In this document: piece by piece, positions 1,661 to 28,910 of the stretch
Position numbering within the stretch: position 1 is the first letter of the stretch
Layout of the letters: each line of letters starts with the position of its first letter
NCBI GenBank assembly: GCA_045636245.1
Contig: JAZTXA010000146.1
Span: 1-36,958 of the forward strand
Length of the DNA stretch: 36,958 bases
Direction of reading: 5' to 3'
Source: Eubacteriales bacterium
GTDB taxonomy: Bacteria; Bacillota; Clostridia; Oscillospirales; CAG-272
Notes under the pieces: model-generated
Databases searched by the model: none
The model's input: only the letters and a program-made list of their open reading frames with translations
What the model was told of the DNA's origin: nothing
Made by a program: the position numbers and the translations under genes

Positions 1661-1696
1661 CATTCGTTTTTATATGTCTGAAATATTTCCTTATTC

Positions 1697-9699: not shown

Positions 9700-9728
9700 T
9701 TGACAACTGTGCGAATATATGTTATTAT
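9700..9728 (+). promoter_or_regulatory. Sigma-A-type promoter of the seven-gene ABC operon
   Basis: TTGACA (9700-9705), a 17-nt spacer, then TATTAT (9723-9728). Confidence 0.55.
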
Positions 9729-9842: not shown

Positions 9843-12800
9843 ATGAGAAAATCAAAATTGTCAAGAGCTTTGATTGTTTTTCTCGCCCTGTTGACGGCCA
9901 TATCGCCCGTGGGCATCAGTGCAGCGGAAGGTACATCCACTACGACAAGTATTGAAGATGTACGTGAGTTGCTTGAAGCACAGACGTATTATGACTATCT
10001 CCAGGAGAACAACAACCTCGGAATTACCGATGGCGAGGGTTCTGTAACCGTTAAGGCGGCAGAAGGCTTCACTTTCGAAAAGGATGAGGAATACGGTAAG
10101 GAGGACGATATTGCGAAGGTCGTGACCGACCCTGACGGCGAAAAGGGCGATGTCCTTTACGTTCCGCAGACGGGTACGGTTTCATGGAATATATCGATTC
10201 CCAAGACCGGTTATTACATTGTTAAGCTTACGTACAGACCCGTTGAAAACGATTCCGGCTCTGCGAACACTTCTACTATTGAACGCGTCCTCAGAATAGA
10301 CGGCAAGGTTCCCTTTAAGGAAGCCAACTATTTTGAAATGACACGTGCATTTAAAGATGTTTACACAGAACAGGATGAAAACGGAAGTCCTGCGTTCAAG
10401 CTTGACTTCAACGGCAACGACAAGAAGCCCGAGAAGAAGCAGGTTTATATGTGGAGCGAATACAGCCTTTGCGATTCCGCAGGCTTCCACGTAGATCCGT
10501 TTAAGTTCGTTTTTGAGGCTGGTGAACATACCATCGCCTTGGAAGCTACGATGAACGACATGTATCTGTATGATATCACGGTTGAAAAAGCGGAAACGCG
10601 TATTTCATACGAAAAATACGTTGCACAGTATGCGAACCTTCCCGCGGTCGATTCGTCGGTTGCGTATAAGATCCAGGCAGAGTACCCCATACATGCTTCC
10701 GATCTTACAATATACGCTCTCAACGACAGAACATCGCCTATAACAGAGCCGCAGGATCCTGCAAAGCAGAAGCTGAACACTATCGGCGGAAGCAAATGGC
10801 AGAACATCGGTCAGTGGATAGAATGGACGATTCCCGCATCCGCAATAACACAGTCGGGACTTTACAACATAATCCCCCGTTATCTGCAGAACACATTGGC
10901 AGGTCTTTACGTTTCAAGACGTATATTCATTAACGGCGAGATACCGTTTGAAGAAGCAAGTTACTTGCAGTTCAACTATGCCGATGACTGGGCAACAGCT
11001 CCCCTCAACAACGGTGAGGAAGAGTTCAAGTTCTATCTTGAGGCAAACAAAGAATACACAATCCGACTTGAAGTAGTTTACGGTAATTTGTCAGATGCGC
11101 TTCGCCGTTGCGAAACATCGCTGACAAACATGAACGAAATATATAACTCCATATTGAGAATTACAGGTCCTACACCTGACGAAAATATGGACTACGGTTT
11201 CGCAGAACAGATATACGACACGATCATTCTCATGCAGGAAACAAGAGATGAGCTTCAGTCGATTGTTGATATGTTCCTTGAAATCTCGGAAGGTAAATCC
11301 GCAGAGAACATAGCAACACTTGAAAAGATTATATTTATCCTTAATAAGATGTGTACAGATGAGGATGAGATCGCGAAGAACCTTGAAAACCTCAAGGTAA
11401 ACTCCGGTACGCTCGGTACATGGATAATGAACACTAAGCTTCAGCCTCTTACACTTGACTATTTGCTCGTTCAGGCTGCAGATGCAGAGGTTCCCGAAGC
11501 AAATGCGACATTCTGGCAGAGCCTTTGGTTTGAAATCAGTTCATTTTTCCAGAGCTTCTTCACAGACTATAACTCACTCGGTGCATCTGAGCAGATCGAT
11601 GAAGAAAACGTAGTTGAAGTCTGGATCGCAACGAGCCGTGACGAAGCGCAGGTTATGCGTGAGCTTGTTGACAAGGACTGTCCCGTAACTGTAAACCTTA
11701 AGCTTGTTGCAGGCGGTACGCTTCTTCCCGCGACACTTGCGGGAACAGGTCCCGATATTTCATTGGCAACAGGTCAGTCTGACGTTATCAACTACGCTAT
11801 CCGTAGTGCGATTGAACCGTTGTCACAGTTTGATGACTACTTTGATTATGTTGGTAACACAAACCGTTTCAATCCTGAAACGCTTGTAGGTTTGAGACTT
11901 CAGAATCCCGAAGTTACAGATGAAAACGATCCTCATTACTATGACTATTACGGTGTTCCGGAACGTCTTGGCTTCGTTATGATGTTCTACCGTAAGGACA
12001 TCTTTGCAGAGCTTGATATCGAAGTTCCGAGAACATGGGATGACCTTTATGAGATCGTTCCCGACCTTCAGACAAACTACCGTGATGTCGGTATGGCATC
12101 CAGCCTTGGCGGTCTTCAGATATTTATGTATCAGCTTGATGAAGACCTCTACAAGGAAAACGGTATGAGAATCAATATAGATTCCAATACGTCACTCGAT
12201 TGCTTCAAGAAGCTTTGTGACCTCTTCACATCTTATAACTTCCCCAGAGTATATGACCTTGCAACATACTTCAGAATGGGTGAAATGCCCATCGCTGTTG
12301 CGGATTATCTTACATACAACCACTTCTCGATCTATGCTACGGAAATCAAGGGCTTGTGGGAATTCGTTCCGCTTCCCGGTACGATAGATCCCGAAACAGG
12401 TGAGCTTAACAACTCCGTTCCTTGTTCTGTTTCGGCAGTTATTCTTATGGCTGACGAAAACAGATCCGAAAAGGTAAGAAACGATGCTTGGGAATTCATC
12501 AAGTGGTGGACAGATGCTCCTGCACAGAGTGAATATGCAAGACAGTATGAGGCGCTGATCGGTATGGCTGCTAAGTACAACACAGCTAACATGGAAGCGC
12601 TCAGAAGTATGCCTTGGACATCTTCCGAAATGAAGAACCTTGAGGCACAGTTCCAGAACCTTAAAGGTACTCCTGAATATCCCGGCGGTTACATCATAAC
12701 ACGTTACGTTGACTTTGCATTCCTTGATGCTTACAACAACGGTACTGATCCCGTTGATGCACTGCTTGACAATGTTGTTAATATCAACAGTGAGCTTTCA

Positions 12801-12857
12801 AGAAAGAGACAGGAATTCGGTCTGCCGATATACGAGGAAGTATACGGAAATGAATAA
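9843..12857 (+). CDS. Giant extracellular solute-binding protein: signal peptide, two CBM-like beta-sandwich modules, a helical linker and a family-1 ABC substrate-binding domain
   Basis: 1004 aa. The signal peptide MRKSKLSRALIVFLALLTAISPVGISAAEG has no lipobox Cys. There is an internal duplication: GTVSWNISIPKTGYYIVKLTY...RIDGKVPFKEANYF...FKFVFEAGEHTIALEA versus GQWIEWTIP...SGLYNIIPRY...FINGEIPFEEASYL...FKFYLEANKEYTIRLEV. The C-terminal roughly 420 aa is SBP-like (VEVWIATSRDE, GTGPDISL, TWDDLYEIVPDL, AWEFIKWW). Confidence 0.75.
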   Translation: MRKSKLSRALIVFLALLTAISPVGISAAEGTSTTTSIEDVRELLEAQTYYDYLQENNNLGITDGEGSVTVKAAEGFTFEKDEEYGKEDDIAKVVTDPDGEKGDVLYVPQTGTVSWNISIPKTGYYIVKLTYRPVENDSGSANTSTIERVLRIDGKVPFKEANYFEMTRAFKDVYTEQDENGSPAFKLDFNGNDKKPEKKQVYMWSEYSLCDSAGFHVDPFKFVFEAGEHTIALEATMNDMYLYDITVEKAETRISYEKYVAQYANLPAVDSSVAYKIQAEYPIHASDLTIYALNDRTSPITEPQDPAKQKLNTIGGSKWQNIGQWIEWTIPASAITQSGLYNIIPRYLQNTLAGLYVSRRIFINGEIPFEEASYLQFNYADDWATAPLNNGEEEFKFYLEANKEYTIRLEVVYGNLSDALRRCETSLTNMNEIYNSILRITGPTPDENMDYGFAEQIYDTIILMQETRDELQSIVDMFLEISEGKSAENIATLEKIIFILNKMCTDEDEIAKNLENLKVNSGTLGTWIMNTKLQPLTLDYLLVQAADAEVPEANATFWQSLWFEISSFFQSFFTDYNSLGASEQIDEENVVEVWIATSRDEAQVMRELVDKDCPVTVNLKLVAGGTLLPATLAGTGPDISLATGQSDVINYAIRSAIEPLSQFDDYFDYVGNTNRFNPETLVGLRLQNPEVTDENDPHYYDYYGVPERLGFVMMFYRKDIFAELDIEVPRTWDDLYEIVPDLQTNYRDVGMASSLGGLQIFMYQLDEDLYKENGMRINIDSNTSLDCFKKLCDLFTSYNFPRVYDLATYFRMGEMPIAVADYLTYNHFSIYATEIKGLWEFVPLPGTIDPETGELNNSVPCSVSAVILMADENRSEKVRNDAWEFIKWWTDAPAQSEYARQYEALIGMAAKYNTANMEALRSMPWTSSEMKNLEAQFQNLKGTPEYPGGYIITRYVDFAFLDAYNNGTDPVDALLDNVVNINSELSRKRQEFGLPIYEEVYGNE

Positions 12858-12956
12858 ACCGTTGTCACACCGCCCGGTCCTCGGCGGCTCGGCGATGTGA
12901 TGATATAATAGAAAAAAGATATTCATTATATAATTCTAATATAGGAGAGTACACAC

Positions 12957-13916
12957 ATGTCACAAAATACGGCAGTTAAAACCGAGAGTGTAAAGCCGGT
13001 ATCGCGTAAAGATATGTCGAAATTGCAGTGGACATGGAAAGAAATGAAGAAACACAAAATGGGCTATGTAATGATTGCTCCGTTCTTCATTCTGTTCTTT
13101 ATCTTTACTGTGGTTCCCGTTCTTTTGTCGCTGGTGCTCAGCTTTACGTCCTTCAACTTGCTTGAATGGCCTAAATGGTTGGGTTTTGACAACTACTTAA
13201 GATTATTCCTTGATGACGATATATTCCTTACAGCAGTTAAGAATACACTTATATTCGCTATTGTTACAGGTCCTGTATCGTACATAATGTCACTTTTCGT
13301 TGCGTGGTTTATCAATGAGCTTTCACCGAAGGTAAGAGCTTTGGTAACACTTATATTCTACGCACCGAGTATATCGGGTGCGATGTATTCAATCTTTGCG
13401 ATCTTCTTCTCCTCCGACCGTTACGGATACGTTAACGCAATTCTCATTTCACTCAATATCAGAACAGAACCGATACAGTTCTTCCAGGATGCAGCATACG
13501 TTATGCCTTTGTGTATAGTTGTTGCGCTCTGGACATCGCTTGGTGTTACGTTCCTTTCGTTTATCGCCGGTCTTCAGACGATTGATAACAGCCTTTATGA
13601 AGCAGGCGCGATTGACGGTATACGTAACAGATGGCAGGAGCTTTGGTATATCACGCTTCCCACGATGCGTCCTCAGCTTTTGTTCGGTGCCGTTATGGCT
13701 ATCACGGGCGCATTCGGCTTCGGCGGTATAGTTACCGCTTTGGCAGGCTTCCCGTCTGTTGACTACTGCGCACACACGATCATGCACCACCTTGAAGACT
13801 ACGGCGGTCAGCGTTTCGAGGTTGGTTATTCATCTGCAATTGCAACGATATTGTTCTTGATGATGATCGGTTCAAATATGCTTATTCAGAAATTACTCTC
13901 GAAGGTGGGCGAATAA
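12957..13916 (+). CDS. Carbohydrate ABC transporter permease (MalF/UgpA-like), pair 1
   Basis: 319 aa with 6 TM segments. EAA loop LYEAGAIDGIRNRWQELWYITLP. Confidence 0.9.
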   Translation: MSQNTAVKTESVKPVSRKDMSKLQWTWKEMKKHKMGYVMIAPFFILFFIFTVVPVLLSLVLSFTSFNLLEWPKWLGFDNYLRLFLDDDIFLTAVKNTLIFAIVTGPVSYIMSLFVAWFINELSPKVRALVTLIFYAPSISGAMYSIFAIFFSSDRYGYVNAILISLNIRTEPIQFFQDAAYVMPLCIVVALWTSLGVTFLSFIAGLQTIDNSLYEAGAIDGIRNRWQELWYITLPTMRPQLLFGAVMAITGAFGFGGIVTALAGFPSVDYCAHTIMHHLEDYGGQRFEVGYSSAIATILFLMMIGSNMLIQKLLSKVGE

Positions 13917-13917
13917 T

Positions 13918-14793
13918 ATGGCTAAGAAGTTAAGAGTTCGTAATCATAAAGTCGTCCTCAACCGCTCCGCCGGCGGTGACGCGGGTATCACATTAATGCT
14001 TATCATCCTCGGCGCGATGATGTTTTTGCCCATGTACTTTGCGGTAATGCAGTCGTTCAAGCCTCTTGATGAGCTTTGGATATTCCCTCCGAAATTCTAC
14101 GTTATCAACCCCACGCTTAAAAACTACTCCGACCTGTTCAAGTTGATGAGTACATCTTGGGTTCCTTTCTCCCGTTACATATTCAACACCGTTCTTATTA
14201 CGGTTTGCGGTACATTCGGTAACCTGGCACTTGGTTCTCTTGCAGCTTATGCGCTTGCAAAGATCCCGTTCCCGGGCAGAAACGGTATGTTCAAGATGGT
14301 CGTCCTCTCCCTCATGTTCGTGTCTACGATCACGGGTGTTGCGAACTTCATCACAATGAGATTCCTCGGACTTATCGACAACATTTTGGCGATAATTATC
14401 CCTGCATTCTGCTCAACTCTTGGTCTTTACCTTATGAAGCAGTTTATGGAATCTTCAGTATCTGACCAGGTTCTTGAATCTGCACGTCTTGACGGCGCAG
14501 GTGAATTTAAAGTATTCTGGACAATAGCAATGCCGATGGTTAAGCCCGCTTGGCTTACACTTATCGTGTACTCCTTCCAGGGACTCTGGAACACAGGTTC
14601 TTCTATCTATATTCAGAGTGAACAGTGGAAGACATTCAACTATGCTATTAACCAGATTTTGTCGGCAGGTATTGTCCGTGCCGGCGCAAGTACGGCGGCG
14701 ATGGTTATCATGATGATCGTCCCCGTTACGGTATTTGTCATCACACAGAGTAACATTATTGAAACGATGGGTACATCGGGTATGAAGGATTAA
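13918..14793 (+). CDS. Carbohydrate ABC transporter permease (MalG/UgpE-like), pair 1
   Basis: 291 aa. EAA loop LESARLDGAGEFKVFWTIAMP. The gap to the upstream gene is 1 nt. Confidence 0.9.
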   Translation: MAKKLRVRNHKVVLNRSAGGDAGITLMLIILGAMMFLPMYFAVMQSFKPLDELWIFPPKFYVINPTLKNYSDLFKLMSTSWVPFSRYIFNTVLITVCGTFGNLALGSLAAYALAKIPFPGRNGMFKMVVLSLMFVSTITGVANFITMRFLGLIDNILAIIIPAFCSTLGLYLMKQFMESSVSDQVLESARLDGAGEFKVFWTIAMPMVKPAWLTLIVYSFQGLWNTGSSIYIQSEQWKTFNYAINQILSAGIVRAGASTAAMVIMMIVPVTVFVITQSNIIETMGTSGMKD

Positions 14794-14802
14794 GGAGGAA
14801 AT

Positions 14803-16953
14803 ATGAAAAAAATACTTTTCAGAACACTTACTGTCCTTTTAGGTGTACTTACGGTGCTTTCGCCTATCACGGCGTCTGCGTATTATTCTTATCAGACATA
14901 TACCTATTCACTTGAAGGGTACCCGATGAATTCTCCCGACGCATACGTTCCGTCGGAGATCGTCGACAGTGATTCTATGGGACTTGTCGTTGACATTGAC
15001 GACCCCAAGGATATTACGGTAGACAGCGATAATAATGTGTATATCGCAGATGCTACAAATCACAGAATCGTTGTTCTTAACAACCGCTTTAAGCAGAGAT
15101 TTATAATCGATGAGTTTGTTAACGAACACGGCGTAAAAGATGCGCTTACAAACCCCAACGGTGTGTTTGTTACAGACGAAAAAATTTATGTTGCCGATAC
15201 GGACAACAGCCGTATTGTTGTGTTCGACAAGGAAGGCGAATTTCTTGAGATAATCGGCAAGCCTATTTCAAAGGAAATCAGTGTTGATGACCTTTACAGA
15301 CCTATTGCACTTGCAGTTGATGCCGCGGGCCGTATGTACATTGTTTCTTCAACGACATACAGAGGTATTATTGCAATCAACAAGGAAGGTAACTTCCAGG
15401 GCTTTATAGGTGCACAGAAATCCTCCCTCAGTGCGTGGGAGATCTTCTGGAGAAAGTTCCAGACAGAGGAACAGAGAAAATACTCCGATACAGTCGTATC
15501 AACTGAGTATAACAATATAACCATCGACGATATGGGACTTATTTACGTTACCACATCCTCCATCGACGAAGGTGCACAGCAGAACGCAATTAAAAGTAAG
15601 GATAAATCCGGTGACTACGCTCCTGTCAAGAAGCTTAACACAGCCGGTGACGAGATACTTGACCGTAACGGCTTCTGGCCTCCGTCAGGTGAAGTAGAGG
15701 TCAATGATCAGAATATGACCACAAGCTCATCGTCAATTACAGGTCCTTCCAAGATCATTGACGTTGCACTTGGTCCGGAAGGTACATGGAGCATCATCGA
15801 CGAAAAGAGAAACAAGGTCTTCACATATGATGAAGAAGGACGTTTGCTTTTCGTATTCGGTGACCAGGGTACACAGCTCGGTAACCTTCAGAGCATTCAG
15901 GCTATCACCTATATGGGCGATGATATGTTGCTTCTCGACAAGACTGCTGATAATATCACAGTTATGAAGCGTACCGACTACGGTGATACACTTATCAATG
16001 CTATCAAGAATCAGCGTGAGCGCCGCTATGACGAGGCTGAAGCTGACTGGCTTGAAATTTTGAAGCGTAACAATAACTTTGATGCAGCTTATGTAGGACT
16101 TGGCAGAGCGTACTACCGTGACGGTAAGTATGAAGATGCTATGGATATGTATAAGTTTGCATACGATACTGAGAACTATTCAACGGCGTTTAAGTATTAC
16201 AGACAGGAATGGGTTGCAAAATATGCCCTTGTTGTTCCGATAGTTGTGGTGGTTATCGCAATTGCTGTATATTACTTCTTCACCTATGCCGGAAAAAAGA
16301 ACAAAGAGGTTGCGACAAGACCCGACGGTTCAAGAACCTTCTGGGAAGAGATTCTCTACGGTATGCATGTAATAATGCACCCGTTTGATGGTTTCTGGGA
16401 TTTGAAATACGAAAGACGAGGTTCTGTAAGAGGCGCTATCGTATACATTATATTGGCAATAGCGGCCTTCACATACAACGGTATCGGTTCTGCATACTTG
16501 TTCAATCCTCAGGGCGAATATATAAGCGTATTCGGTCAGATCATTTCGATCCTTGTTCCGCTTTTCCTGTGGTGTCTTGCAAACTGGTGTCTTACAACGC
16601 TGTTTGAAGGTGAGGGAAGCTTTAAAGATATCTTCATCGCATCTTCTTATGCGCTTGCACCTATACCGCTTTTGATGATACCCGCAACACTTTTGACAAA
16701 CATATTCACACTTAACGAATCGCAGATCATCACACTTCTCACATCCATTATGTGGATTTGGGTAGGTTTGCTTATATTCTTCGGTTCGATGATAACACAC
16801 GACTATTCACTCGGAAAGAACCTTATAATCAGTATCAGTACAATAGTTGGTATGGCGGCAATCATGTTTATTGCATTGTTGTTCTCCAGCTTGATGTCCA
16901 AGATCATAAGCTTTATCACGAGTATCGTGGTCGAAATTTCGTACAGAATGTAG
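14803..16953 (+). CDS. Signal peptide + NHL-repeat beta-propeller + TPR-like segment + C-terminal Yip1-type polytopic membrane domain
   Basis: 716 aa. Signal peptide ...LSPITASA. NHL-type blades: VYIADATNHRIVVLN, IYVADTDNSRIVVFDKEGEF, MYIVSSTTYRGIIAINKEGNF and KVFTYDEEGRLLFVFG. TPR-like segment: YDEAEADWLEILKRNNNFDAAYVGLGRAYYRDGKYEDAMDMY. TM segment ALVVPIVVVVIAIAVYYFF, then a K/R-rich loop and about 5 further TM segments (Yip1-like). Confidence 0.65.
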   Translation: MKKILFRTLTVLLGVLTVLSPITASAYYSYQTYTYSLEGYPMNSPDAYVPSEIVDSDSMGLVVDIDDPKDITVDSDNNVYIADATNHRIVVLNNRFKQRFIIDEFVNEHGVKDALTNPNGVFVTDEKIYVADTDNSRIVVFDKEGEFLEIIGKPISKEISVDDLYRPIALAVDAAGRMYIVSSTTYRGIIAINKEGNFQGFIGAQKSSLSAWEIFWRKFQTEEQRKYSDTVVSTEYNNITIDDMGLIYVTTSSIDEGAQQNAIKSKDKSGDYAPVKKLNTAGDEILDRNGFWPPSGEVEVNDQNMTTSSSSITGPSKIIDVALGPEGTWSIIDEKRNKVFTYDEEGRLLFVFGDQGTQLGNLQSIQAITYMGDDMLLLDKTADNITVMKRTDYGDTLINAIKNQRERRYDEAEADWLEILKRNNNFDAAYVGLGRAYYRDGKYEDAMDMYKFAYDTENYSTAFKYYRQEWVAKYALVVPIVVVVIAIAVYYFFTYAGKKNKEVATRPDGSRTFWEEILYGMHVIMHPFDGFWDLKYERRGSVRGAIVYIILAIAAFTYNGIGSAYLFNPQGEYISVFGQIISILVPLFLWCLANWCLTTLFEGEGSFKDIFIASSYALAPIPLLMIPATLLTNIFTLNESQIITLLTSIMWIWVGLLIFFGSMITHDYSLGKNLIISISTIVGMAAIMFIALLFSSLMSKIISFITSIVVEISYRM

Positions 16954-16970
16954 TAAGGAGGTAAATTATA

Positions 16971-19900
16971 ATGGCTTTGAAAAAACTTTTATCTATGCTC
17001 CTTGCTATACTCATGGTAGTAGGTACACTCACAGCTTCTTTTGCGGTTACGATATATGCGGACGAAGAGGAAGACACACAGACGGGTGAGACCGAAACCG
17101 AAGGCGAGGAAGAAGAGGAAGACTCCGGTAATATCGACTATACAAGAGTTGAGTACGATTCACCGGAAGATAAACTCAAATCAATGACTCTCCGTGTTCA
17201 GAACAACAACTATGAGCTTTATTCTTTCGCAAGAACGGGTGAAGTTGCTGTTCGTGACAGAAGATCGGGACAGATACTTTTCTCAAACCCCTATGACCTT
17301 GGCTCAACCACAGGTTCTGCGGATACAAAAGAAATGCTTCTGTCACAGGTAATCGTTGAATTTACAAACGGTTCCAAAAACCAGACATACTACAGCTATA
17401 AGGAAGCGGCTCTCCGTGACCAGATAATCGTTAAGAATATTCAGAACGGTTTGAGAGTTGAGTATGCAATAGGACGTACGGAAACAAGAAAGCTTGTTCC
17501 GCGTCAGATCACAAAAGAAAGCTTTGAAACAAATATTATTGCAAAGCTTAAAGAAGCAGGTGTTTCCAACTGGCTTTTGAACAAGTTCACAGCTTACTAT
17601 CTGCTTAAAGACCCCACAGCAGCGGGTGTCACACAGACAACTCTTAACGCGATGTATAACCAGTGGCCTATCACAAAGAAGTATGCCATCTACGTGCTTT
17701 CCAACGATACAAAGGACAGAGAGTACAACTGGATTGAAGAGCAGATCAAAAAATACTGCCCTGAATACACATACGAAAAGCTTGACGAAGACCACGATCT
17801 CGTTGAGTACAGCGTTACAGACACAGCTCCCCCCTTGTTCCGTCTTTCTATTGAGTATACGCTTGACGAACAGGGACTTACCGCAAGACTTGCGGCAAAC
17901 GGTATCCGTTTCAACGAGGCCAACTATAAGCTGAAGAAGCTTACTATCCTGCCTTATTTCGGCGCAGGTAACAGTAAGGATAACGAAGGCTACACATTTA
18001 TTCCTGACGGAAGCGGTACGCTGACAAGATTCGAAGACGTTGATACACAGCTTTCACTCAGTGCGAAAATGTACGGTTCCGACTTTGCATACCACACAGA
18101 TGATCCTCAGCACCGTCAGGCGATGAGACTTCCTGTATTCGGTATTGTGGAAAATTATGTCGAATCGAATACATACAGAGTAAATGTTCCGCTCAACAAG
18201 TATTATTACGCAGACGGCACGGAAATAACAAGATATATTTCCGAAAATGCTGACAAGGGTTGGTTCAACGTATATCCCGAAAACGGTGTATTCTATGACA
18301 AAGACGGAAAAGCTGCTCACACAATGAAGAACGGCGAATATCCCGAAGATATGGAATATATCGACGCATACGGAAATCTTATCAGCACAAAGTCTGTCAC
18401 AGAAACCTCAACATATGAGGAAGACAGAGGATATTTTGCTATCCTTCTTGAAGGTGACGCACTTGCTGAAATTTCCACAAACCACGGCGGTGTTCTCCAT
18501 GACTACAGCTCTGTTGCAACATCGTTCTACCCCCGTCCTACCGACTCGTATAACCTTGCTGATGCAACAAGTGTCGGCGCAAATGCGATGTGGACGGTAA
18601 CATCAAAGCGTAGATACACAGGCAGCTACATAATCAGATACACAATGCTTACAGATGAAGCAAAAGCGGCTGATTATAATGCTTATCTTGAAGATCCCGA
18701 AGGCTACAGAGATAATCTTATTTCAGGTCTTGTCCCTGATGCTGAAGGAAATGTTGACACATCATCACTCTTCATTCCCGATGTTAAGGTTGATAATTAT
18801 AAATATTATCCCGCATCGTATATGGGTATGGTAAATGTCTGCAGAGATTATCTTGAAGGTGAAGGAATCCTTACAAGACTTAAGGCAGAAGATGTAAAAG
18901 ACGATATTCCCCTTTGTATCGAAACAATGGGTGTTATCAAATCTACAGATAAAATTTTGAGTATTCCCGTAGAAGTCAAAGTACCTCTTACAACATTTGG
19001 CGATGTCAAGACTATGTACGGTATGTTGGCTGAAAAGGACATCACAAATGTCAACTTCAAGCTTACGGGCTATGCAAACGGCGGTGTTACATCTACTGTT
19101 CCCAACAAAGTTAAGTGGGAAAAGAAAGTAGGCGGTGCTAGCGGATTCGAGGATCTTATGGCGTTCGCTGAAGAAAAGGATATTGGTATATATCCTGAAT
19201 TTGAATTCTCTTATTTGCAGAGTGTTTCGCTCTTTGACGGCTTCAACTACAAGAAGCATGCAGTTCAGACAATGGACGGCAGATACCCGTCACAGCGTGA
19301 ATATAACCCTGCATACCAGGAATTCTATAAGACGGGCTTCAACCCCATTTCTCCTTCTGTTTTCGAATATTTCTATGACAAAATGTCAAAAGATCTTCTT
19401 GAAACAAAGCCCACAGGTATTTCCGTTTCAACTCTTGGTTCGGATCTTAACTCCGACTTTAACGAGGACGATCCTTACAACAGAGAAGACAGCAAGGAAT
19501 TTGTAAAAGATCTGCTTGCAAAGATGCAGAACGATTTCGGCAAAGTAATGGTAAGCGGCGGTAACTCCTTTGTTCTCCCGTATACAGATTACATTCTCAA
19601 TGTACCGCTTGATTCCAGCCAATACCTGAAATCAAGTAACGCAATACCTTTCGTGGGTATGGTTCTCCACGGATATGTAAACTTTACAGGTTCTGCCCTT
19701 AATATGGCAGGTGACTTGGACTACGAACTTTTGAAGGCAATTGAAAACGGTTCTTCGATGTATTTCGTACTTTGTTATCAGAATACGAACAAACTCAAGG
19801 AAGACGTTACACTTCAGAAGTACTATTCTGTAAACTTCGATACATGGCTTGAAGGTCTCGCTGAAAGCTATCACAAGCTCAACGGTGCTATAAGCGATGT

Positions 19901-20387
19901 TCAGGATAAGCTCATAATCGATCACGAATTTATCTCCGGCGTGCGTGTTCTTACAGAAGAAGAATATCAGCAGGCAGTTGCAGATAAGCTTCGTGCAGAG
20001 GAAGAATCAAAGAAGGAAGAAACGGAGGCACCCGAAACAGAAGCTCCTGTTGATTCCGAAACAGAAGCACCTGTTGATTCAGATGCTCCCGTTGACAGTG
20101 ATTCCTCTGTTGGAACGGATGCTCCTGTAGAAGATACTGAAACAGACGCTCCCGCAGAAGACGCTCCCGCAGAAGATGATGCTGAAGAAGATAAGGAAGA
20201 TGAAAAACTTTCCATCGAAGAACAGATCGCAGCAGAAAACGTTATTGACAATGGCAAGATCGTTAAGGTAACTTATGAAGGCGGTAAGGTATTCATACTT
20301 AACTACAACAACTTCAAAGTTTCCGTTGACGGTGTTGAGATCGAAGCTCTCGGCTTCCACACATATACAGAAGGAGGAGAAGGCTGA
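16971..20387 (+). CDS. Large secreted or anchored acidic protein of unknown function (possibly DUF5696-type; putative glycan-active)
   Basis: 1138 aa. N-terminal hydrophobic segment LLSMLLAILMVVGTLTASFAV is followed by DEEEDTQTGETETEGEEEEED. A globular core of roughly 900 aa has no motif I can assign. The C-terminal acidic/Pro tandem-repeat linker (ETEAPVDS etc.) is followed by a tail of about 60 aa. The DUF5696 label comes from memory of similar loci and is unverified. Confidence 0.45.
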   Translation: MALKKLLSMLLAILMVVGTLTASFAVTIYADEEEDTQTGETETEGEEEEEDSGNIDYTRVEYDSPEDKLKSMTLRVQNNNYELYSFARTGEVAVRDRRSGQILFSNPYDLGSTTGSADTKEMLLSQVIVEFTNGSKNQTYYSYKEAALRDQIIVKNIQNGLRVEYAIGRTETRKLVPRQITKESFETNIIAKLKEAGVSNWLLNKFTAYYLLKDPTAAGVTQTTLNAMYNQWPITKKYAIYVLSNDTKDREYNWIEEQIKKYCPEYTYEKLDEDHDLVEYSVTDTAPPLFRLSIEYTLDEQGLTARLAANGIRFNEANYKLKKLTILPYFGAGNSKDNEGYTFIPDGSGTLTRFEDVDTQLSLSAKMYGSDFAYHTDDPQHRQAMRLPVFGIVENYVESNTYRVNVPLNKYYYADGTEITRYISENADKGWFNVYPENGVFYDKDGKAAHTMKNGEYPEDMEYIDAYGNLISTKSVTETSTYEEDRGYFAILLEGDALAEISTNHGGVLHDYSSVATSFYPRPTDSYNLADATSVGANAMWTVTSKRRYTGSYIIRYTMLTDEAKAADYNAYLEDPEGYRDNLISGLVPDAEGNVDTSSLFIPDVKVDNYKYYPASYMGMVNVCRDYLEGEGILTRLKAEDVKDDIPLCIETMGVIKSTDKILSIPVEVKVPLTTFGDVKTMYGMLAEKDITNVNFKLTGYANGGVTSTVPNKVKWEKKVGGASGFEDLMAFAEEKDIGIYPEFEFSYLQSVSLFDGFNYKKHAVQTMDGRYPSQREYNPAYQEFYKTGFNPISPSVFEYFYDKMSKDLLETKPTGISVSTLGSDLNSDFNEDDPYNREDSKEFVKDLLAKMQNDFGKVMVSGGNSFVLPYTDYILNVPLDSSQYLKSSNAIPFVGMVLHGYVNFTGSALNMAGDLDYELLKAIENGSSMYFVLCYQNTNKLKEDVTLQKYYSVNFDTWLEGLAESYHKLNGAISDVQDKLIIDHEFISGVRVLTEEEYQQAVADKLRAEEESKKEETEAPETEAPVDSETEAPVDSDAPVDSDSSVGTDAPVEDTETDAPAEDAPAEDDAEEDKEDEKLSIEEQIAAENVIDNGKIVKVTYEGGKVFILNYNNFKVSVDGVEIEALGFHTYTEGGEG
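20035..20174 (+). repeat. In-frame tandem repeats encoding the acidic linker
   Basis: A 24-nt unit, GAAACAGAAGCTCCTGTTGATTCC (20035-20058), repeats at 20059-20082 with 2 mismatches, and a degenerate third unit follows at 20083-20106. A perfect 15-nt duplication, GACGCTCCCGCAGAA, lies at 20145-20159 and 20160-20174. Confidence 0.85.
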
Positions 20388-21361
20388 TGAATAATACTGC
20401 AAACGAAAAGCTTGTAAAAGCGGCTCCCAAGAAAAAACGCCGCATAGCTTCGCTTGATAAGAAGAAGGCAAGAGCAGGTTATATATTTGTACTTCCGTTT
20501 ATAATCGGTCTTGTGGCAATGTATTTGCCGATCATTTATGACTCCATTCTGTACAGCTTTACAAATATCAAGCACGGCGCAGACGGATATCAGCTGATGT
20601 TTGTCGGCCTTGAAAACTACCGTGACGCATTGTTCGTAGATACGACATACGTTCAGGTGCTTACAACAGGTGTCCAGCAGTTGTTCCTTGACATTCCCTG
20701 TATAGTAATATTCTCGCTGTTTATGGCTGTTCTTCTTAACCAGAAGATGATCGGCCGTGCGGCTTTCCGTGCAATTTTCTTTGTCCCCGTTGTCTTGTCA
20801 ACAGGTTTGGTTGCAAAGATCGACTCGGGCAACGAATTGCTTTCCTACATGCAGAATACCGATGAAGGTATCAGCACAGGTGCGCAAAGCACGGGCGTTT
20901 CGGAAATCGTTTCCGCAATGGACTTCAAATACTTGTTCTCAAGTATGAAAGTCGGTACTGAGCTTGTTGAATACGTTATAAGTGCTATCAACAACATTTA
21001 TAACATTGTCAACCGTTCCGGTGTTCAGATGCTTATCTTCCTTGCAGGTTTGCAGTCAATTTCCCCCGCTATTTATGAGTCGTGTGAAATTGAAGGCGCA
21101 TCTGCTTGGGAAACATTCTGGAAGATCACCTTCCCGATGATAAGCCCGATGATTCTGACAAATGCAGTTTATACGATCATTGACGCGTTTACATCTTCTA
21201 CAAATACGGTTATGTCTTATATCGATCAGGTATACAGCAAGACAGACGGTGACGTTCTTTCGTCAGCGATGGCTTGGATGTACTTCTTGATAGTAATTGC
21301 GATAATCGCCGCTGTGGTTGGTATTCTGTCAATGTACGTATTCTATCAGAGAAGAGATTAA
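20387..21361 (+). CDS. Carbohydrate ABC transporter permease (MalF-like), pair 2
   Basis: 324 aa. EAA loop IYESCEIEGASAWETFWKITFP. The start overlaps the upstream stop (TGATG). Confidence 0.9.
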   Translation: MNNTANEKLVKAAPKKKRRIASLDKKKARAGYIFVLPFIIGLVAMYLPIIYDSILYSFTNIKHGADGYQLMFVGLENYRDALFVDTTYVQVLTTGVQQLFLDIPCIVIFSLFMAVLLNQKMIGRAAFRAIFFVPVVLSTGLVAKIDSGNELLSYMQNTDEGISTGAQSTGVSEIVSAMDFKYLFSSMKVGTELVEYVISAINNIYNIVNRSGVQMLIFLAGLQSISPAIYESCEIEGASAWETFWKITFPMISPMILTNAVYTIIDAFTSSTNTVMSYIDQVYSKTDGDVLSSAMAWMYFLIVIAIIAAVVGILSMYVFYQRRD

Positions 21362-21375
21362 GGGGGTGTATGTAA

Positions 21376-22428
21376 ATGAATGCTGATGCAAGTGTAAAAA
21401 CAAAAAGAAAAGCAAAAGACACTGTAAAGGTTGATTTCGACAGAACCCCGTTCTGGCAGAGAATGAAGGCAAAGTATCTTTCACTTTACTTCCTCAAAAA
21501 GGTTGTTTGGGCATTATTCCGATACGTTTTGCTTATCGGTATATCGTATGTTATACTTTTCCCCTTCTTTGCAAAGATCGCTTCTTCGTTTATGTCGCCC
21601 GAGGACTTTGTCGATGCAACGGTTAAATTGATACCTAAGTATCCCACATTTGACCAGTATAAGTACATAGTTCTTGAGAACCATTATCTCAAAGCATTAA
21701 TGAACACAACGCTCCTTTCGTTGTCGTGTGCAGTATTCCAGACGTTTATATGTGCTATAATCGGTTATGGTTTTGCTAAATTCAAATTCAAGGGAAATGG
21801 TCTCTTGTTCGCGCTCGTTATATTCTCGATGGTCGTTCCTCACCAGACGCTCCAGCTTGCTATGTTTATGAAGTTCAGATACTTTGACGTTCTCGGTATC
21901 ATGAATTTGCTTGGTGGCGGCGTTTTCAAGGGTCTGAATATCACAGGCGGCGTAACATACTTCAATTTGACAAACCAATTCACACCGCTTATACTCCTCT
22001 CACTTACAGGATTTGCGTTTAAGAACGGTCTTTATATCTTTATGATGAGACAGTTCTATAAGGGTGTTCCCGATGAGCTTGAGGAATCCGCATATGTTGA
22101 CGGTTCGGGTGTTATGCGTACATTCTTCCAGATAATTATTCCGCTTTCCGTACCTATGATGATTACAATATTCTTGTTTGCGTTCTCATGGCAGTGGACA
22201 GACAGCTTCTACACAGGCTTGTTCTTCACGAAGACGGATATTTATATGATGAAGAGTATCGTCGCAATTCCTAAGTCGCTTGATATTACATTCGCTGCTT
22301 CAAACCTCTATAATGCTGCGATAAGAAATACTTGCGGACTTATGATAATCCTTCCCCTTGTTATCTTGTTCCTGTTCTGCCAGAGATATCTCATTCAGGG
22401 TATCGAGCGTTCAGGTATCACAGGCTAA
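21376..22428 (+). CDS. Carbohydrate ABC transporter permease (MalG-like), pair 2
   Basis: 350 aa. EAA loop LEESAYVDGSGVMRTFFQIIIP. Confidence 0.85.
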   Translation: MNADASVKTKRKAKDTVKVDFDRTPFWQRMKAKYLSLYFLKKVVWALFRYVLLIGISYVILFPFFAKIASSFMSPEDFVDATVKLIPKYPTFDQYKYIVLENHYLKALMNTTLLSLSCAVFQTFICAIIGYGFAKFKFKGNGLLFALVIFSMVVPHQTLQLAMFMKFRYFDVLGIMNLLGGGVFKGLNITGGVTYFNLTNQFTPLILLSLTGFAFKNGLYIFMMRQFYKGVPDELEESAYVDGSGVMRTFFQIIIPLSVPMMITIFLFAFSWQWTDSFYTGLFFTKTDIYMMKSIVAIPKSLDITFAASNLYNAAIRNTCGLMIILPLVILFLFCQRYLIQGIERSGITG

Positions 22429-22454
22429 TAACGGTGTACACAAACTGATAATTT

Positions 22455-22488
22455 CAAGACTGACTCAACGAGTCAGTCTTGATTTTTT
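22455..22488 (+). terminator. Intrinsic terminator of the ABC operon
   Basis: CAAGACTGACTC-aac-GAGTCAGTCTTG (12-bp stem) followed by ATTTTTT. Confidence 0.85.
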
Positions 22489-24865: not shown

Positions 24866-25020
24866 CGCACAAGGTGCGGTTAAATCCGAGCAAGCTCAGA
24901 TGAAATCTGCTTCGCAGATGAAATTAAATCCACCAGCGCCCGTCGCCGCGGCGGATTTCACACGCTACATGTGTATTTCATATTGCGAAGCAATATTTAG
25001 CGCGCCCGTAAGGGTGGATT
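24866..25020. repeat. Array of about 7 short GC-rich tri/tetraloop hairpins separated by A/T-rich GATTTCA/GAAAT-like spacers
   Basis: Hairpins seen: CGCAC-aag-GTGCG; GAGCaaGCTC; ATCTGC-ttc-GCAGAT; AAATCCaCC...GGcGGATTT; ACAC...GTGT; ATATTGC-gaa-GCAATAT; CGCCC-gtaa-GGGTG. Confidence 0.5.
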
Positions 25021-25026
25021 TAGTTG

Positions 25027-25059: not shown

Positions 25060-25146
25060 TGGTGCCGGTGGCGGGGGTCGAACCCGCACGGTATCGCTAC
25101 CACTGGATTTTGAGTCCAGCACGTCTGCCAATTCCATCACACCGGC
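25060..25146 (-). tRNA. tRNA-Leu (anticodon CAA), class II with long variable arm, encoded CCA
   Basis: The reverse complement reads GCCGGTGTGATGGAATTGGCAGACGTGCTGGACTCAAAATCCAGTGGTAGCGATACCGTGCGGGTTCGACCCCCGCCACCGGCACCA. Acceptor stem GCCGGTG/CACCGGC, anticodon loop CTCAAAA, T-arm GCGGG-TTCGACC-CCCGC. Confidence 0.95.
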
Positions 25147-25281: not shown

Positions 25282-25300
25282 TAAAATTTTGTGGTACAAT
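25272..25300 (+). promoter_or_regulatory. Promoter of nadABC-niaR
   Basis: TTGACA (25272-25277), a 17-nt spacer, then TACAAT (25295-25300). Confidence 0.6.
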
Positions 25301-25342
25301 ATCGACAATTTAAATCATTTTATCCGAAATGGAAAGAAAATT

Positions 25343-26254
25343 ATGACAAGTGATATTTTAAATGAGATAATAGATCTCAAAAAAGAAAAAAATGCGGTGA
25401 TACTTGCGCATTACTATGCACCCGATGAAATACAGTCGGTTGCAGATTACGTAGGAGATTCGTTCTACCTTGCCAAAACAGCGGAAAAGATTCCGGAAAA
25501 TCTTATCGTTTTCTGCGGTGTCGGTTTTATGGCGGAGAGTGTGAAGATAATAAATCCCGAAAAAACAGTTCTTGTGCCCGATATAAGCGCTGACTGTGCG
25601 ATGGCGCATATGGCATCGGTGGAAAAGATTAAAGAGTTAAGAGCAAAATACGATGACTTGGCTGTCGTATGCTACATAAATTCAACTGCTGAACTTAAGT
25701 GCCACAGTGACATTTGCGTTACTTCATCAAATGCGGTGAAGATAGTAAAGAATTTACCGAACAAAAATATTTTCTTTATCCCTGACAAAAATCTCGGCGG
25801 ATATGTTGCAGAACAAGTACCGGAAAAAAATATAATTTTAAATGACGGCTACTGTCCTGTACATGCCGCACTTTCGGTTGATTCTCTGAAGAAAACGATA
25901 GAAGCACATCCAAATGCACAGGTTTTGACACACCCCGAATGTGAAAGGGAAATACTTGAGCTTTCCGATTACATCGGAAGCACTGCAGATATATTAAAGT
26001 ATGCCTATGAAAGTGAGTGCAAAGAATTTATCATTTGTACCGAGGACGGTGTAGAATATCCTTTGCAGCAAAACAACCCCGGAAAGAAATTTTACTTTGC
26101 GGGTGAAGATTTCAAATGTATGGATATGAAGCTGAATACACCCGAAAAGCTGTTGTATGTTTTAAAAGCGGGCGAAAACGAAATAAAGGTAGACGAAACG
26201 AAAAGGGAAAAAGCACTTTTGCCCTTAAAGCGGATGCTTGAAAGTGCAAAATAA
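25343..26254 (+). CDS. nadA: Quinolinate synthase
   Basis: ORF trimmed to MTSDILNEIIDLKKEKNAVILAHYY. 303 aa. The three conserved Cys contexts are present (FCGVGFMAE, YINSTAE, CPVH). Confidence 0.9.
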   Translation: MTSDILNEIIDLKKEKNAVILAHYYAPDEIQSVADYVGDSFYLAKTAEKIPENLIVFCGVGFMAESVKIINPEKTVLVPDISADCAMAHMASVEKIKELRAKYDDLAVVCYINSTAELKCHSDICVTSSNAVKIVKNLPNKNIFFIPDKNLGGYVAEQVPEKNIILNDGYCPVHAALSVDSLKKTIEAHPNAQVLTHPECEREILELSDYIGSTADILKYAYESECKEFIICTEDGVEYPLQQNNPGKKFYFAGEDFKCMDMKLNTPEKLLYVLKAGENEIKVDETKREKALLPLKRMLESAK

Positions 26255-26264
26255 CGGAGAAAAT

Positions 26265-27539
26265 ATGAAAGCCGATATTGTAATTGTCGGATGCGGGGTA
26301 AGCGGTCTGTACTTTGCCCTGAATCTTCCGAGAGACAAAAAAATACTAATGATAACGAAGGATGATGAAGAAAACAGCGATTCCTTTCTGGCGCAAGGCG
26401 GTATATGCGTTCTTAAAGACAAGGACGATTATGATTCGTTTTTCGAAGATACGATGCGTGCAGGTCATTATGAAAACAGGAAAGAATCTGTTGACATAAT
26501 GATACGATCCTCACGCGGTGTTATAAATGACCTTATTTCATACGGCGTTGATTTTGAAAAGGAAAACGGTGAGCTTGCCTACACAAAAGAAGGCGCCCAC
26601 ACCAAAAACAGAATACTTTTCCATAAGGATGAAACGGGTAAGGAGATAACAAAAAATCTTTTAAAGGCGGTCAAAAAGCTTGACAATGTCACGCTCAAAG
26701 AACACTCTGCAATGGTCGATATAATCGAAAATGACGGCGAATGTGCAGGTATTGTTTACCGCGATGAAAAAGGGAATTATAAAACTGTTTACGCAGATTA
26801 CACAATGCTTGCAACAGGCGGTATAGGAGGACTTTTTGAACATTCCACAAACTTCCCCCACTTGACGGGAGATGCCTTGGCAATTGCGCTCAAGCACGGT
26901 GTTAAGCTTAAAAATATAGACTATATACAGATACACCCCACTACGCTTTATACAAAGAAAAAGAACGGACGGGATTTCCTTATTTCCGAATCCGTCAGAG
27001 GCGAGGGTGCAGTGCTTTTGAATGAAAAGGGCGAGCGCTTTGTAAATGAGCTTTTACCGAGAGATGTTGTTGCAAATGCGATATTTGAGGAAATGGCAAA
27101 GACGGGGGCTGAACACGTGTGGCTTTCAATGGCTCCGATACCGAAAGAGGAAATAGAAAGCCATTTTCCGAATATTTGCGCAAAATGCCTTGAAGAAGGG
27201 TATGATGTAACAAAGGAGCCTATACCCGTTGTACCCGCACAGCATTACTTTATGGGCGGTATATACGTTGATAAATACAGCAAAACATCGATGAACAGGC
27301 TGTATTCATCCGGTGAAACGGCTTGTAACGGTGTACACGGTAAAAACAGACTTGCAAGCAATTCGCTTCTTGAAAGTCTTGTGTTTGCAAAACGTGCCGC
27401 ACAGAGGATAACTAAAACATATACAAAGGCTGAACATGTAAAGCAGATAATTGACTTTTCCGTTTATGACGGCTGTGATGAAGAATACAGAAAAACCGTA
27501 CTTGATGCGATAGAAAGTGAGAAGAAAAAACATGAATGA
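26265..27539 (+). CDS. nadB: L-aspartate oxidase
   Basis: Trimmed to MKADIVIVGCGVSGLY (FAD GxGxxG). AQGGI, RGEGAVL and HYFMGGI motifs. GGAG RBS. Confidence 0.9.
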   Translation: MKADIVIVGCGVSGLYFALNLPRDKKILMITKDDEENSDSFLAQGGICVLKDKDDYDSFFEDTMRAGHYENRKESVDIMIRSSRGVINDLISYGVDFEKENGELAYTKEGAHTKNRILFHKDETGKEITKNLLKAVKKLDNVTLKEHSAMVDIIENDGECAGIVYRDEKGNYKTVYADYTMLATGGIGGLFEHSTNFPHLTGDALAIALKHGVKLKNIDYIQIHPTTLYTKKKNGRDFLISESVRGEGAVLLNEKGERFVNELLPRDVVANAIFEEMAKTGAEHVWLSMAPIPKEEIESHFPNICAKCLEEGYDVTKEPIPVVPAQHYFMGGIYVDKYSKTSMNRLYSSGETACNGVHGKNRLASNSLLESLVFAKRAAQRITKTYTKAEHVKQIIDFSVYDGCDEEYRKTVLDAIESEKKKHE

Positions 27540-28383: not shown

Positions 28384-28394
28384 GGGGAATGTGA

Positions 28395-28910
28395 ATGAAA
28401 GCAGAAACAAGAAGAAAAGAGATAATATCCCGCCTTATATCGGAAAACGGACCCGTTTCGGGCAGTGAGCTTGCCGAGGTGCTTGATGTTTCAAGACAGA
28501 TAATAGTTCACGATATTGCGATATTGAAGGCGGCAGGATATGAGATACTGTCAACCCACAGCGGTTATATTTTAAATGAAACACCCAAGGCTGAACGCGC
28601 GTTCAAGGTGCGCCACACAAGCGAGAGAACTGAAGAGGAGCTTTCCTTGATCATCGATATGGGCGGTACAGTTGACGATGTGTTTGTTTGGCATAAGGTG
28701 TACGGAAAGGTACAGGCAAAGCTCAATATTTTTTCAAAACGCGGTATTGAGCAGTTTATTGACGGCATAAACAGCGGACGCTCGACGGAGCTTATGAACA
28801 TTACCGATGGATATCACTATCATACGGTAAAGGCGGACAGTAACGAAACGCTCGATAAAATAGAAAAGGAATTGAAAGCCCGCGGTCTTCTCGTCCCCGA
28901 GGTTGAATAA
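28395..28910 (+). CDS. niaR: NAD-biosynthesis transcriptional repressor NiaR (YrxA type; HTH + 3H domain)
   Basis: 171 aa. N-terminal HTH (RRKEIISRL...SGSELAEVLDVSRQIIVHDI). C-terminal His-containing 3H domain (VRHTSE..., VWHKVYG, GYHYHTV). It is the last gene of the nad operon. Confidence 0.85.
   Translation: MKAETRRKEIISRLISENGPVSGSELAEVLDVSRQIIVHDIAILKAAGYEILSTHSGYILNETPKAERAFKVRHTSERTEEELSLIIDMGGTVDDVFVWHKVYGKVQAKLNIFSKRGIEQFIDGINSGRSTELMNITDGYHYHTVKADSNETLDKIEKELKARGLLVPEVE

Follow-up and report, generated by a model that had tools for sequence, protein, structure and literature searches.

The stretch of DNA analysed here, referred to below as the window, comprises the 36,958 nucleotides of contig JAZTXA010000146.1 from an Eubacteriales bacterium (assembly GCA_045636245.1; Clostridia, Oscillospirales, CAG-272). 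On its forward strand, the open reading frame (ORF) 14803..16953 starts with ATG and encodes a membrane protein of 716 amino acids, in which an NHL β-propeller and a TPR-like segment are joined to a membrane module of the Yip1 family. The gene is the fourth of seven co-oriented and tightly spaced genes (9843..22428, plus strand) and lies between two pairs of permease genes. The order is solute-binding protein (SBP), permeases A1 and B1, the NHL-TPR-Yip1 protein, a DUF5696 protein, and permeases A2 and B2. The genes and the putative signals that border them are the following:

9700..9728, plus strand: best sigma-70-like promoter match (TTGACA-17-TATTAT; TG precedes the -10 hexamer), recognised only by its agreement with the consensus at 11 of 12 positions and located about 115 nt upstream of where the SBP gene starts.
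9843..12857, plus strand: large SBP of 1004 amino acids (Pfam SBP_bac_8, PDB profile match).
12957..13916, plus strand: permease A1, MalF/UgpA-like, of the first CUT1 translocator (BPD_transp_1; similarity to UgpA, GlcT and MalF).
13918..14793, plus strand: permease B1, MalG/UgpE-like, of the first translocator (BPD_transp_1; similarity to UgpE, GlcU and MalG).
14803..16953, plus strand: the NHL-TPR-Yip1 protein.
16971..20387, plus strand: DUF5696 protein of 1138 amino acids (PF18952, AlphaFold2 model, Foldseek).
20387..21361, plus strand: permease A2 of the second translocator, whose start overlaps the DUF5696 stop (BPD_transp_1; UgpA-like).
21376..22428, plus strand: permease B2 of the second translocator, 350 amino acids (BPD_transp_1; similarity to GlcU, UgpE and MalG).
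22454..22482, plus strand: strongest intrinsic-terminator-like hairpin, a 13-bp stem followed by a T-run 26 nt past B2 (pattern match only).

The four BPD_transp_1 proteins, with their similarity to MalF, MalG, UgpA and UgpE, and the family-1 SBP (profile match of 5.9e-27) make up the permease pairs and binding protein by which an ATP-binding cassette (ABC) importer of the CUT1 type is recognised, and they bear out the initial annotation of this DNA, made from the letters alone, which placed the gene in a CUT1 importer operon with four permeases. No ABC ATPase was found among the window ORFs scanned, essentially all those of at least 150 amino acids. Firmicutes CUT1 loci usually carry no ATPase of their own and rely on a shared one (MsmX/MsmK). 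Neither a MacB/FtsX nor a HlyD gene is present in the cassette or in the window, and no regulator to go with the transporter and the DUF5696 protein of predicted glycosidase fold was found there. In the 620 nt that precede the operon, Rfam detected neither a riboswitch nor a leader. When sequencing runs were searched, no RNA run holding the sequence was recovered; the only runs found were DNA metagenomes, with at most 10% of the sampled words matched.

The 716-residue protein is a bona fide member of both the Yip1 and the NHL families of Pfam. The Yip1 profile (PF04893) matches residues 522-690 with 54.5 bits, against a gathering cutoff of 28.6, and is covered from position 2 to 171 of its 173, while the NHL profile (PF01436) reaches 50 bits against a cutoff of 20. 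In sequence searches of the PDB the propeller retrieves NHL proteins with E values of 2e-16 to 1e-10, among them Thin (2e-16), TRIM71 and the PknD sensor (8e-11). An AlphaFold2 model built from 17 homologues has moderate confidence (mean pLDDT 66.9), the first blades being at about 90 and blades 4 to 6 lower; it displays six four-stranded blades, helices at residues 392-454, a long transmembrane (TM) helix and then five (five to six) long helices. Foldseek superimposed it on complete six-bladed NHL propellers of the PDB, those of Thin, TRIM71, Brat and the PknD sensor included, over about 335-355 columns and with target TM-scores of 0.70-0.79. For the TPR pair, TPR_16 scores 24 bits, under its cutoff of 32.7. 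The segment nevertheless matches consensus-TPR proteins of the PDB (E=6.5e-5), and in the model its four helices (392-454) run into the long TM helix. A hidden Markov model (HMM) of the segment built in this work matches all full-length representatives, and in a homologue encoded by split genes (locus L081, see below) TPR_2 is above its cutoff (28.6 versus 27).

The topology of the protein is a prediction derived from hydropathy and the positive-inside rule. Hydropathy shows a signal peptide with ASA at residues 24-26, a first TM segment (TM1) at about 475-495 and five more within 543-700. The loop after TM1 contains 8 lysines and arginines, and the predicted external loops contain none; the Yip1 module thus consists of five hydrophobic segments preceded by a basic loop predicted to be cytoplasmic. 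Along the chain the order is signal peptide, six-bladed NHL propeller, two TPR-like hairpins, one TM helix, a lysine/arginine-rich cytoplasmic linker and the five-TM Yip1 module. This is essentially what the initial annotation had read: a cleavable signal peptide (...SPITASA), about six NHL blades, a TPR-like pair, a TM helix with a basic, positive-inside loop and about five further TM helices resembling Yip1 proteins. Each of these elements was recovered, and HMM searches, whose failure to find NHL or Yip1 similarity would by that annotation's own account have spoken against it, place both families above cutoff. The segments of the gene are as follows:

14803..14880, plus strand: signal peptide, residues 1-26, ...SPITASA (hydropathy, direct sequence reading).
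14884..15975, plus strand: extracellular six-bladed NHL β-propeller, residues ~28-391 (Pfam, PDB sequence matches, AlphaFold2 model, Foldseek).
15976..16212, plus strand: pair of TPR-like helical hairpins that runs into the membrane, residues ~392-470 (sub-cutoff TPR_16, PDB consensus TPR, model helices, own HMM).
16213..16338, plus strand: TM1 anchor, residues ~471-496, and poorly conserved lysine/arginine-rich cytoplasmic linker, residues 497-512, the fusion junction (hydropathy, split-pair alignment, conservation).
16339..16953, plus strand: Yip1-family module, residues 513-716 and stop codon, with the motif HPFDGFWDLK.E.RGS and then five TM segments (Pfam, identity to standalone Yip1 proteins, conservation).
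16339-16425, plus strand: conserved, predicted cytoplasmic Yip1 segment HPFDGFWDLK.E.RGS, residues 513-541 (conservation).
16603-16635, plus strand: conserved, predicted cytoplasmic Yip1 segment EGEGSFKD, residues 601-611 (conservation).
16798-16818, plus strand: conserved, predicted cytoplasmic Yip1 segment HDY, residues 666-672 (conservation).

Both the propeller and the Yip1 module are thus encoded by a single gene, and comparison with homologues identifies the product as two membrane proteins naturally fused end to end, which in related bacteria are encoded by adjacent separate genes. The C-terminal 252 residues, searched against 1.8 billion representatives at 50% identity, gave 1,699 matches, of which 268 had E values of 1e-30 or lower. 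These include a short subgroup of 205-214 residues whose alignment begins just past TM1. Standalone Yip1 proteins of 205-210 residues also match PF04893 and are 38-41% identical to the Yip1 module of the window; with one of them (P0214) as query, more than 120 such clusters were found in Oscillospiraceae and Lachnospiraceae. When the genes around standalone Yip1 proteins were looked up, an NHL-TPR-TM gene of 488-516 codons lay immediately upstream in 8 out of 8 cases, often with overlapping stop and start; the eight include orthologous loci (L087-L089) and represent about six distinct arrangements. At their C terminus the split NHL-TPR proteins carry a single TM helix followed by a short basic tail. 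Their Yip1 partners start with the motif "...ELKY...HPF(D/K)GFW(D/E)(I/L)K.E..GS", which corresponds to window residues 513-541. Alignment with the split pairs locates the fusion junction in the cytoplasmic linker, at residues ~497-512. Frameshift artefacts were considered as the origin of the split genes and rejected, given more than 120 distinct Yip1 clusters of consistent length, a proper TM anchor and tail on the upstream protein, and gene junctions of four types (an overlapping ATGA, a 14-nt gap, a 44-nt gap and a 22-nt overlap). Since the NHL-TPR-TM and Yip1 parts are fused in some bacteria and encoded by adjacent separate genes in others, they would be physical partners and work as one unit, according to the Rosetta-stone argument.

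The split cassette is organised as large SBP (960-981 residues), two permeases, NHL+TPR protein (488-516), Yip1 protein (205-210), DUF5696 protein (848-888), two more permeases and an ordinary SBP (472-550); in locus L086 the contig is cut and the SBP falls beyond its end. The ordinary-sized SBP after the second permease pair (SBP2) is a lipoprotein that split-type loci (L081-L090) add to the set, for example at 15256-16779 of L081. Among the 80 fused-type loci, just 4 have an SBP2-like ORF anywhere in their flanks, and only one (L052) has it immediately behind B2. A nine-gene form with split genes and SBP2 was accordingly rejected for the window, whose cassette lacks SBP2. Split-type loci also carry genes for glycoside hydrolases (GH) of families GH28, GH43, GH51, GH36, GH78, GH88, GH95 and GH106, for a rhamnogalacturonan lyase and for GDSL esterases, and AraC or LacI regulators are present in them; judged by this gene content, they have a pectin/rhamnogalacturonan and arabinan flavour.

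The NHL-TPR-Yip1 architecture is an abundant family and not a rarity. The full-length protein has more than 3,000 relatives in the databases. The best 120, from metagenome-assembled genomes of Clostridia, are about 700-755 residues long, all with a precomputed Yip1 domain and all but one also with NHL, and are automatically named "YIP1 family protein" or "hypothetical protein". At least 593 species-representative genomes carry it, and the matches listed belong without exception to Oscillospiraceae, "Eubacteriales" or Ca. Flemingiibacterium from gut or rumen. Synteny was analysed in the best 80 loci of these at least 593, at 50% identity or more, by searching their six-frame ORFs with the seven proteins of the window. 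Throughout the 80 loci the order SBP-A1-B1-NHL/Yip1-DUF5696-A2-B2 is identical, and it is complete in 67 out of 67 that have enough contig; the 13 incomplete loci are every one cut by a contig end. Median intergenic gaps within the cassette are 1-21 nt, with 44 nt after the SBP. The families that flank it, obtained by local clustering of flanking ORFs and scans of cluster representatives, are each present in at most 15 of the 80 loci and are mostly of a housekeeping nature (IscS-like, RNase H, ROK, AlaRS, MnmA, CarB). Since the gene order is constant while the flanks vary, the cassette itself is the conserved unit. A regulator, an ATPase or a GH that would be conserved next to the fused cassette was looked for and rejected, as no flanking family exceeded 15 of the 80 loci; a GH51, GH3 or GDSL esterase gene adjoins a few of them. 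The core order is also kept in divergent split cassettes of other families (38-41% identity in Yip1, 23-28% in DUF5696) with completely different flanks. Among the 88 loci inspected, 80 fused and 8 split, no homologue was found without adjacent permease and DUF5696 genes. The link of the protein to the cassette genes is therefore far beyond chance. A common but randomly distributed architecture had been named in the initial annotation as grounds for abandoning its reading; the architecture proved to be common, with the more than 3,000 proteins, but its distribution is not random, with the same seven genes in all 67 loci. No description of the cassette was found in the literature.

Conservation along the protein was expressed as the mean frequency of the top residue in 101 diverse homologues. 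Segment HMMs detected propeller, TPR and Yip1 in 100 out of 100 full-length representatives (~690-790 residues, 30-53% identical to the window protein). The highest values of the whole protein, 0.62-0.66, belong to the three Yip1 segments listed above as predicted to be cytoplasmic, and the lowest, 0.23-0.31, to the linker (~497-512), TM1 and the signal peptide. Among the blade residues, D83, R88, D132, D242, D333 and D379 are conserved at 90% or more and resemble the repeated structural motif of NHL repeats. The conservation of the Yip1 loops suggests a contact with the cytoplasmic face of the permeases or with the shared ATPase.

The cassette encodes two putative extracellular partners, the SBP and the DUF5696 protein. 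In the 1004-residue SBP, whose signal peptide has no lipobox, about 570 additional N-terminal residues precede a C-terminal SBP domain of the family-1 oligosaccharide type, where SBP_bac_8 matches residues 626-906. Its best PDB profile match is the sophoro-oligosaccharide binder Lin1841 (5ysb; 5.9e-27, profile positions 575-880). The N-terminal ~570 residues (9843-11550) contain an internal duplication (E=1e-5) that looks like two β-sandwich modules of the carbohydrate-binding module (CBM) type, followed by a helical segment; this half gave no Pfam family at E≤0.1 and no sequence relative in the PDB, and CBM_35 is faintly matched in two SBP homologues.

The DUF5696 protein (PF18952, 481 bits) starts with a signal peptide that has no lipobox; a β-sandwich, a (β/α)8 barrel and an acidic low-complexity linker follow, and a small conserved domain forms the C-terminal end. 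The linker, at 19998-20196, is made of EAPVDS/DAPAED-type repeats and precedes the small domain with IVKVTYEGG..FILNYNNF; homologues range from 983 to 1757 residues and vary greatly in the length of this C-terminal acidic-repeat region. As a single sequence the protein retrieved nothing meaningful from the PDB, and a profile of 17 sequences gave borderline matches to two GH129 enzymes (5opq, E=0.004; 5wzn, E=0.035). Its AlphaFold model (pLDDT 81.6, pTM 0.75) was matched by Foldseek to ZgGH129 (5opq, 8e-22) and the GH129 enzyme NagBb (5wzn, 1e-15), followed by GH101, GH31 and GH36 structures, with target TM-scores of 0.61-0.69. On the strength of this model, DUF5696 is a glycosidase-fold protein of GH129/GH101/GH31-like type and a candidate new family of glycoside hydrolases. 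It shares the N-terminal β-sandwich and the (β/α)8 barrel with GH129, GH101, GH31 and GH36, but sequence identity is about 10% and only some acidic positions are conserved. In 17 members of fused and split type these are D346, D356, D371, D496, D525, D/E745 and E925. As far as can be determined, DUF5696 is not an assigned CAZy family, and no paper mentioning it was found in the literature. The two-gene fusion, the glycosidase fold of DUF5696 and the nature of the SBP as a 1004-residue multidomain protein go beyond what the initial annotation contained.

The SBP and the DUF5696 protein of the window both have signal sites of the Ala-X-Ala type, and neither possesses a lipobox cysteine, another TM segment or an LPxTG motif. 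Within the fused-type clade the lipobox is absent in 116 of 120 DUF5696 homologues and in 57 of 67 large SBPs, and LPxTG in all 120 of the DUF5696 homologues; clear lipoproteins are encoded in split-type loci, namely the small SBP2 and some of the DUF5696 proteins. Since a monoderm must retain binding protein and enzyme at its surface and both are devoid of lipid anchors, it is plausible that the membrane-anchored propeller-TPR platform is the retaining device for SBP and DUF5696.

The function that we propose for the NHL-TPR-Yip1 protein, and to which we give an even chance of being correct, is that of an accessory or scaffold subunit, itself non-catalytic, in an apparatus for the capture, trimming and import of glycans at the cell surface. 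The Yip1 module would be located in the membrane beside both permease pairs, and its conserved cytoplasmic loops may touch the permeases or the shared ATPase. The ectodomain formed by propeller and TPR would dock the DUF5696 enzyme, the large SBP or both, or the glycan itself, right above the two translocators, and such docking would couple trimming to uptake. We infer the physical association, the docking role and the class of substrate, which would be plant or pectic-type oligosaccharides. The membrane-held binding platform beside the translocators that the initial annotation had envisaged fits these data. The only function so far described for a Yip1 protein of bacteria, that of YknW (see below), is likewise an accessory one.

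Several observations weigh against the proposed scaffold. The highest conservation is on the predicted cytoplasmic side of Yip1, which a purely extracellular docking leaves unexplained. The signal peptides of SBP and DUF5696 could stay uncleaved and serve as anchors, with no need for docking. Fused loci have no dedicated regulator and usually no flanking glycosidase, and the glycan context has been shown mainly for split-type loci. The 80 loci of the synteny sample are the closest relatives (50% identity or more) of the at least 593, and the most distant fused forms lie outside it. Finally, the model of the protein is only moderately confident (pLDDT 66.9), and the protein-protein and protein-glycan contacts of the scaffold are inferred only.

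An ectodomain that binds the sugar instead of its protein partners would change little of this arrangement. The propeller would then be a lectin-like surface protein that captures poly- or oligosaccharide and hands it to DUF5696 and the SBP, like the surface glycan-binding proteins of Bacteroidetes; this possibility differs from the scaffold only in the ligand of the ectodomain and is largely compatible with it. It is in keeping with an ectodomain tethered outside the cell beside import genes, with the location of split-type cassettes within glycan-degradation loci and with the versatility of six-bladed propellers as ligand binders, the extracellular PknD sensor being an example. However, NHL propellers are better known for binding protein, RNA or small ligands, the conserved blade residues look structural and do not form an aromatic sugar-binding platform, the SBP already has CBM-like modules and TPR motifs point to protein-protein contacts, and we consider a lectin unlikely. 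More improbable still would be an enzymatic propeller (a lactonase, lyase or esterase of the SGL/SMP-30, strictosidine-synthase or PAL type) acting before import, with Yip1 as a mere anchor. Carbohydrate-processing surroundings, similarity to ScyF/ScyE-type NHL proteins and weak matches to SGL/gluconolactonase-like and DUF5128 profiles (E=7e-4 and 8e-5) would agree with an enzyme, but these profile matches are all under curated cutoffs while the best matches are non-enzymatic NHL propellers. Beyond the structural Asp and Arg of each blade there is no conserved metal or catalytic constellation, and a plain anchor, for which TM1 alone is enough in the split form, would have no need of conserved TPR, Yip1 and cytoplasmic loops.

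The conservation of the predicted cytoplasmic Yip1 loops (HPFDGFWDLK..RGS, EGEGSFKD and HDY) keeps alive a regulatory or gating variant, in which the protein would act across the membrane as a sensor or gate: extracellular substrate would be detected by the propeller and Yip1 would relay the signal to the cytoplasm, modulating the shared ATPase or the translocators and thereby regulating import without scaffolding it. The NHL domain of PknD is a precedent for an extracellular NHL sensor, and, with no ATPase in the cassette or the window, coupling to a shared one may need a specificity factor. Against this stand the lack of a recognisable signalling output domain and of a regulator conserved beside the fused cassette, as well as the split forms, which are separate polypeptides and, together with the unconserved linker, make conformational coupling through the linker unlikely. 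We regard a sensor or gate as rather improbable, somewhat less so than an enzyme. As for a neighbourhood that is coincidental or merely inherited, the protein serving some purpose other than the ABC system (general membrane or envelope maintenance, for instance), the window-type cassette does sit among housekeeping genes, and the 80 loci are fairly close relatives whose shared ancestry inflates the synteny counts. The preservation of the core order in divergent split cassettes of other families, with wholly different flanks, and the intergenic gaps of a few nucleotides or overlaps make coincidence very improbable.

YknW of the Bacillus subtilis YknWXYZ transporter is a Yip1 accessory protein that modulates the assembly of the YknXYZ ABC complex (PMC4887032). 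The initial annotation was right in taking it as a precedent but not in taking it as the only one, as Yip1 proteins of the BawG type also accompany MacB/HlyD-type ABC exporters in bacteriocin gene clusters (PMC10707071). Like YknW and BawG, the window protein has a PF04893 five-TM domain and is encoded inside an ABC-transporter operon, the sequence likeness being known only at the level of the Pfam family. Those systems are MacB-type exporters with a HlyD adaptor of the membrane fusion protein class and an ATPase of their own, whereas the present cassette encodes CUT1 importer permeases and an SBP and no ATPase; and YknW and BawG are Yip1-only proteins of ~220 residues, in contrast to the extracellular NHL-TPR domain of ~470 residues that is here fused to Yip1 or, in the split form, paired with it. 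By analogy, the NHL-TPR-Yip1 protein would work most like YknW, yet the type of transporter leaves it outside the definition of a YknW system. With PknD of Mycobacterium tuberculosis (1rwi/1rwl; E=8e-11, target TM-score 0.75-0.77) it has in common a six-bladed extracellular NHL propeller on a single TM helix; PknD has a cytoplasmic Ser/Thr kinase, while here the propeller is joined through TPR and TM to Yip1, with no known signalling domain and in a transporter operon.

At the level of the locus, the cassette resembles the CUT1 polysaccharide-utilisation loci of Gram-positive bacteria in its MalF/MalG-like pairs, its family-1 SBP and the lack of an ATPase, and the split types also in their flanking GHs and AraC/LacI regulators. 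It departs from them in having two permease pairs, an SBP of ~1000 residues with N-terminal CBM-like duplicates and the obligatory NHL-TPR/Yip1 and DUF5696 proteins between the pairs; the window-type cassette has, moreover, a single SBP and no regulator. In Bacteroidetes, the Sus-like "utilisome" assembles SusC/D, surface glycan-binding proteins and surface enzymes in a TonB-dependent outer-membrane system. The likeness to it would be one of idea only, namely that an SBP, a surface glycosidase and a transporter would be held together, the complex being here a supposition; monoderm ABC importers have entirely different proteins and envelope, with no homology to Sus. A broader possibility, which we put forward as tentative and on balance doubtful, is that the NHL-TPR-Yip1 protein is the hub of an unrecognised glycan-import supercomplex of Firmicutes, with two translocators, a CBM-bearing giant SBP and the GH129-like DUF5696 protein. 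Such a complex would be the monoderm counterpart of the utilisome, with Yip1 as a general membrane adaptor for both exporter and importer ABC systems.

The neighbours of the operon in the window are unrelated housekeeping genes (GNAT, helicase, Vut_1 transporter, SDR, nadABC). A glycine riboswitch aptamer (Rfam RF00504, 63.7 bits; 1571-1664, plus strand) is located directly upstream of a gene of the sodium:alanine symporter family (1745-3295). A match to the Gut-1 sRNA (RF01706, 52.4 bits against a gathering cutoff of 50) adjoins a tRNA gene, the two occupying 24950-25026 and 25063-25146 of the minus strand, with a putative cyclase gene on one side and the nadA operon on the other. The NAD de novo cluster (25289-28910, plus strand) contains nadA, nadB and nadC and then an HTH_11/3H-domain regulator (NiaR-like). 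At 30275-32545, minus strand, a gene for a Fer4_20 and Pyr_redox_2 protein is paired with one for a protein with an Fe-S-binding domain of the DHODB type; together the two resemble ferredoxin:NADP oxidoreductases of the NfnAB or sulfide-dehydrogenase type.

Oscillospiraceae and Lachnospiraceae of the gut and rumen are major fibre degraders, but far less is understood of how these monoderm bacteria organise the capture of glycans on their surface than of the Bacteroidetes Sus systems. The cassette is present in at least 593 species-level genomes and in thousands of metagenomic proteins, and its NHL-TPR/Yip1 and DUF5696 components are functionally undescribed. The split and fused forms of the gene pair constitute a ready prediction of physical partnership. 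If the scaffold is correct, it would represent a new class of accessory subunit for binding-protein-dependent importers, would point to DUF5696 as a candidate new family of glycoside hydrolases and would mean that the part played by Yip1 proteins in bacteria is not confined to MacB-type exporters.

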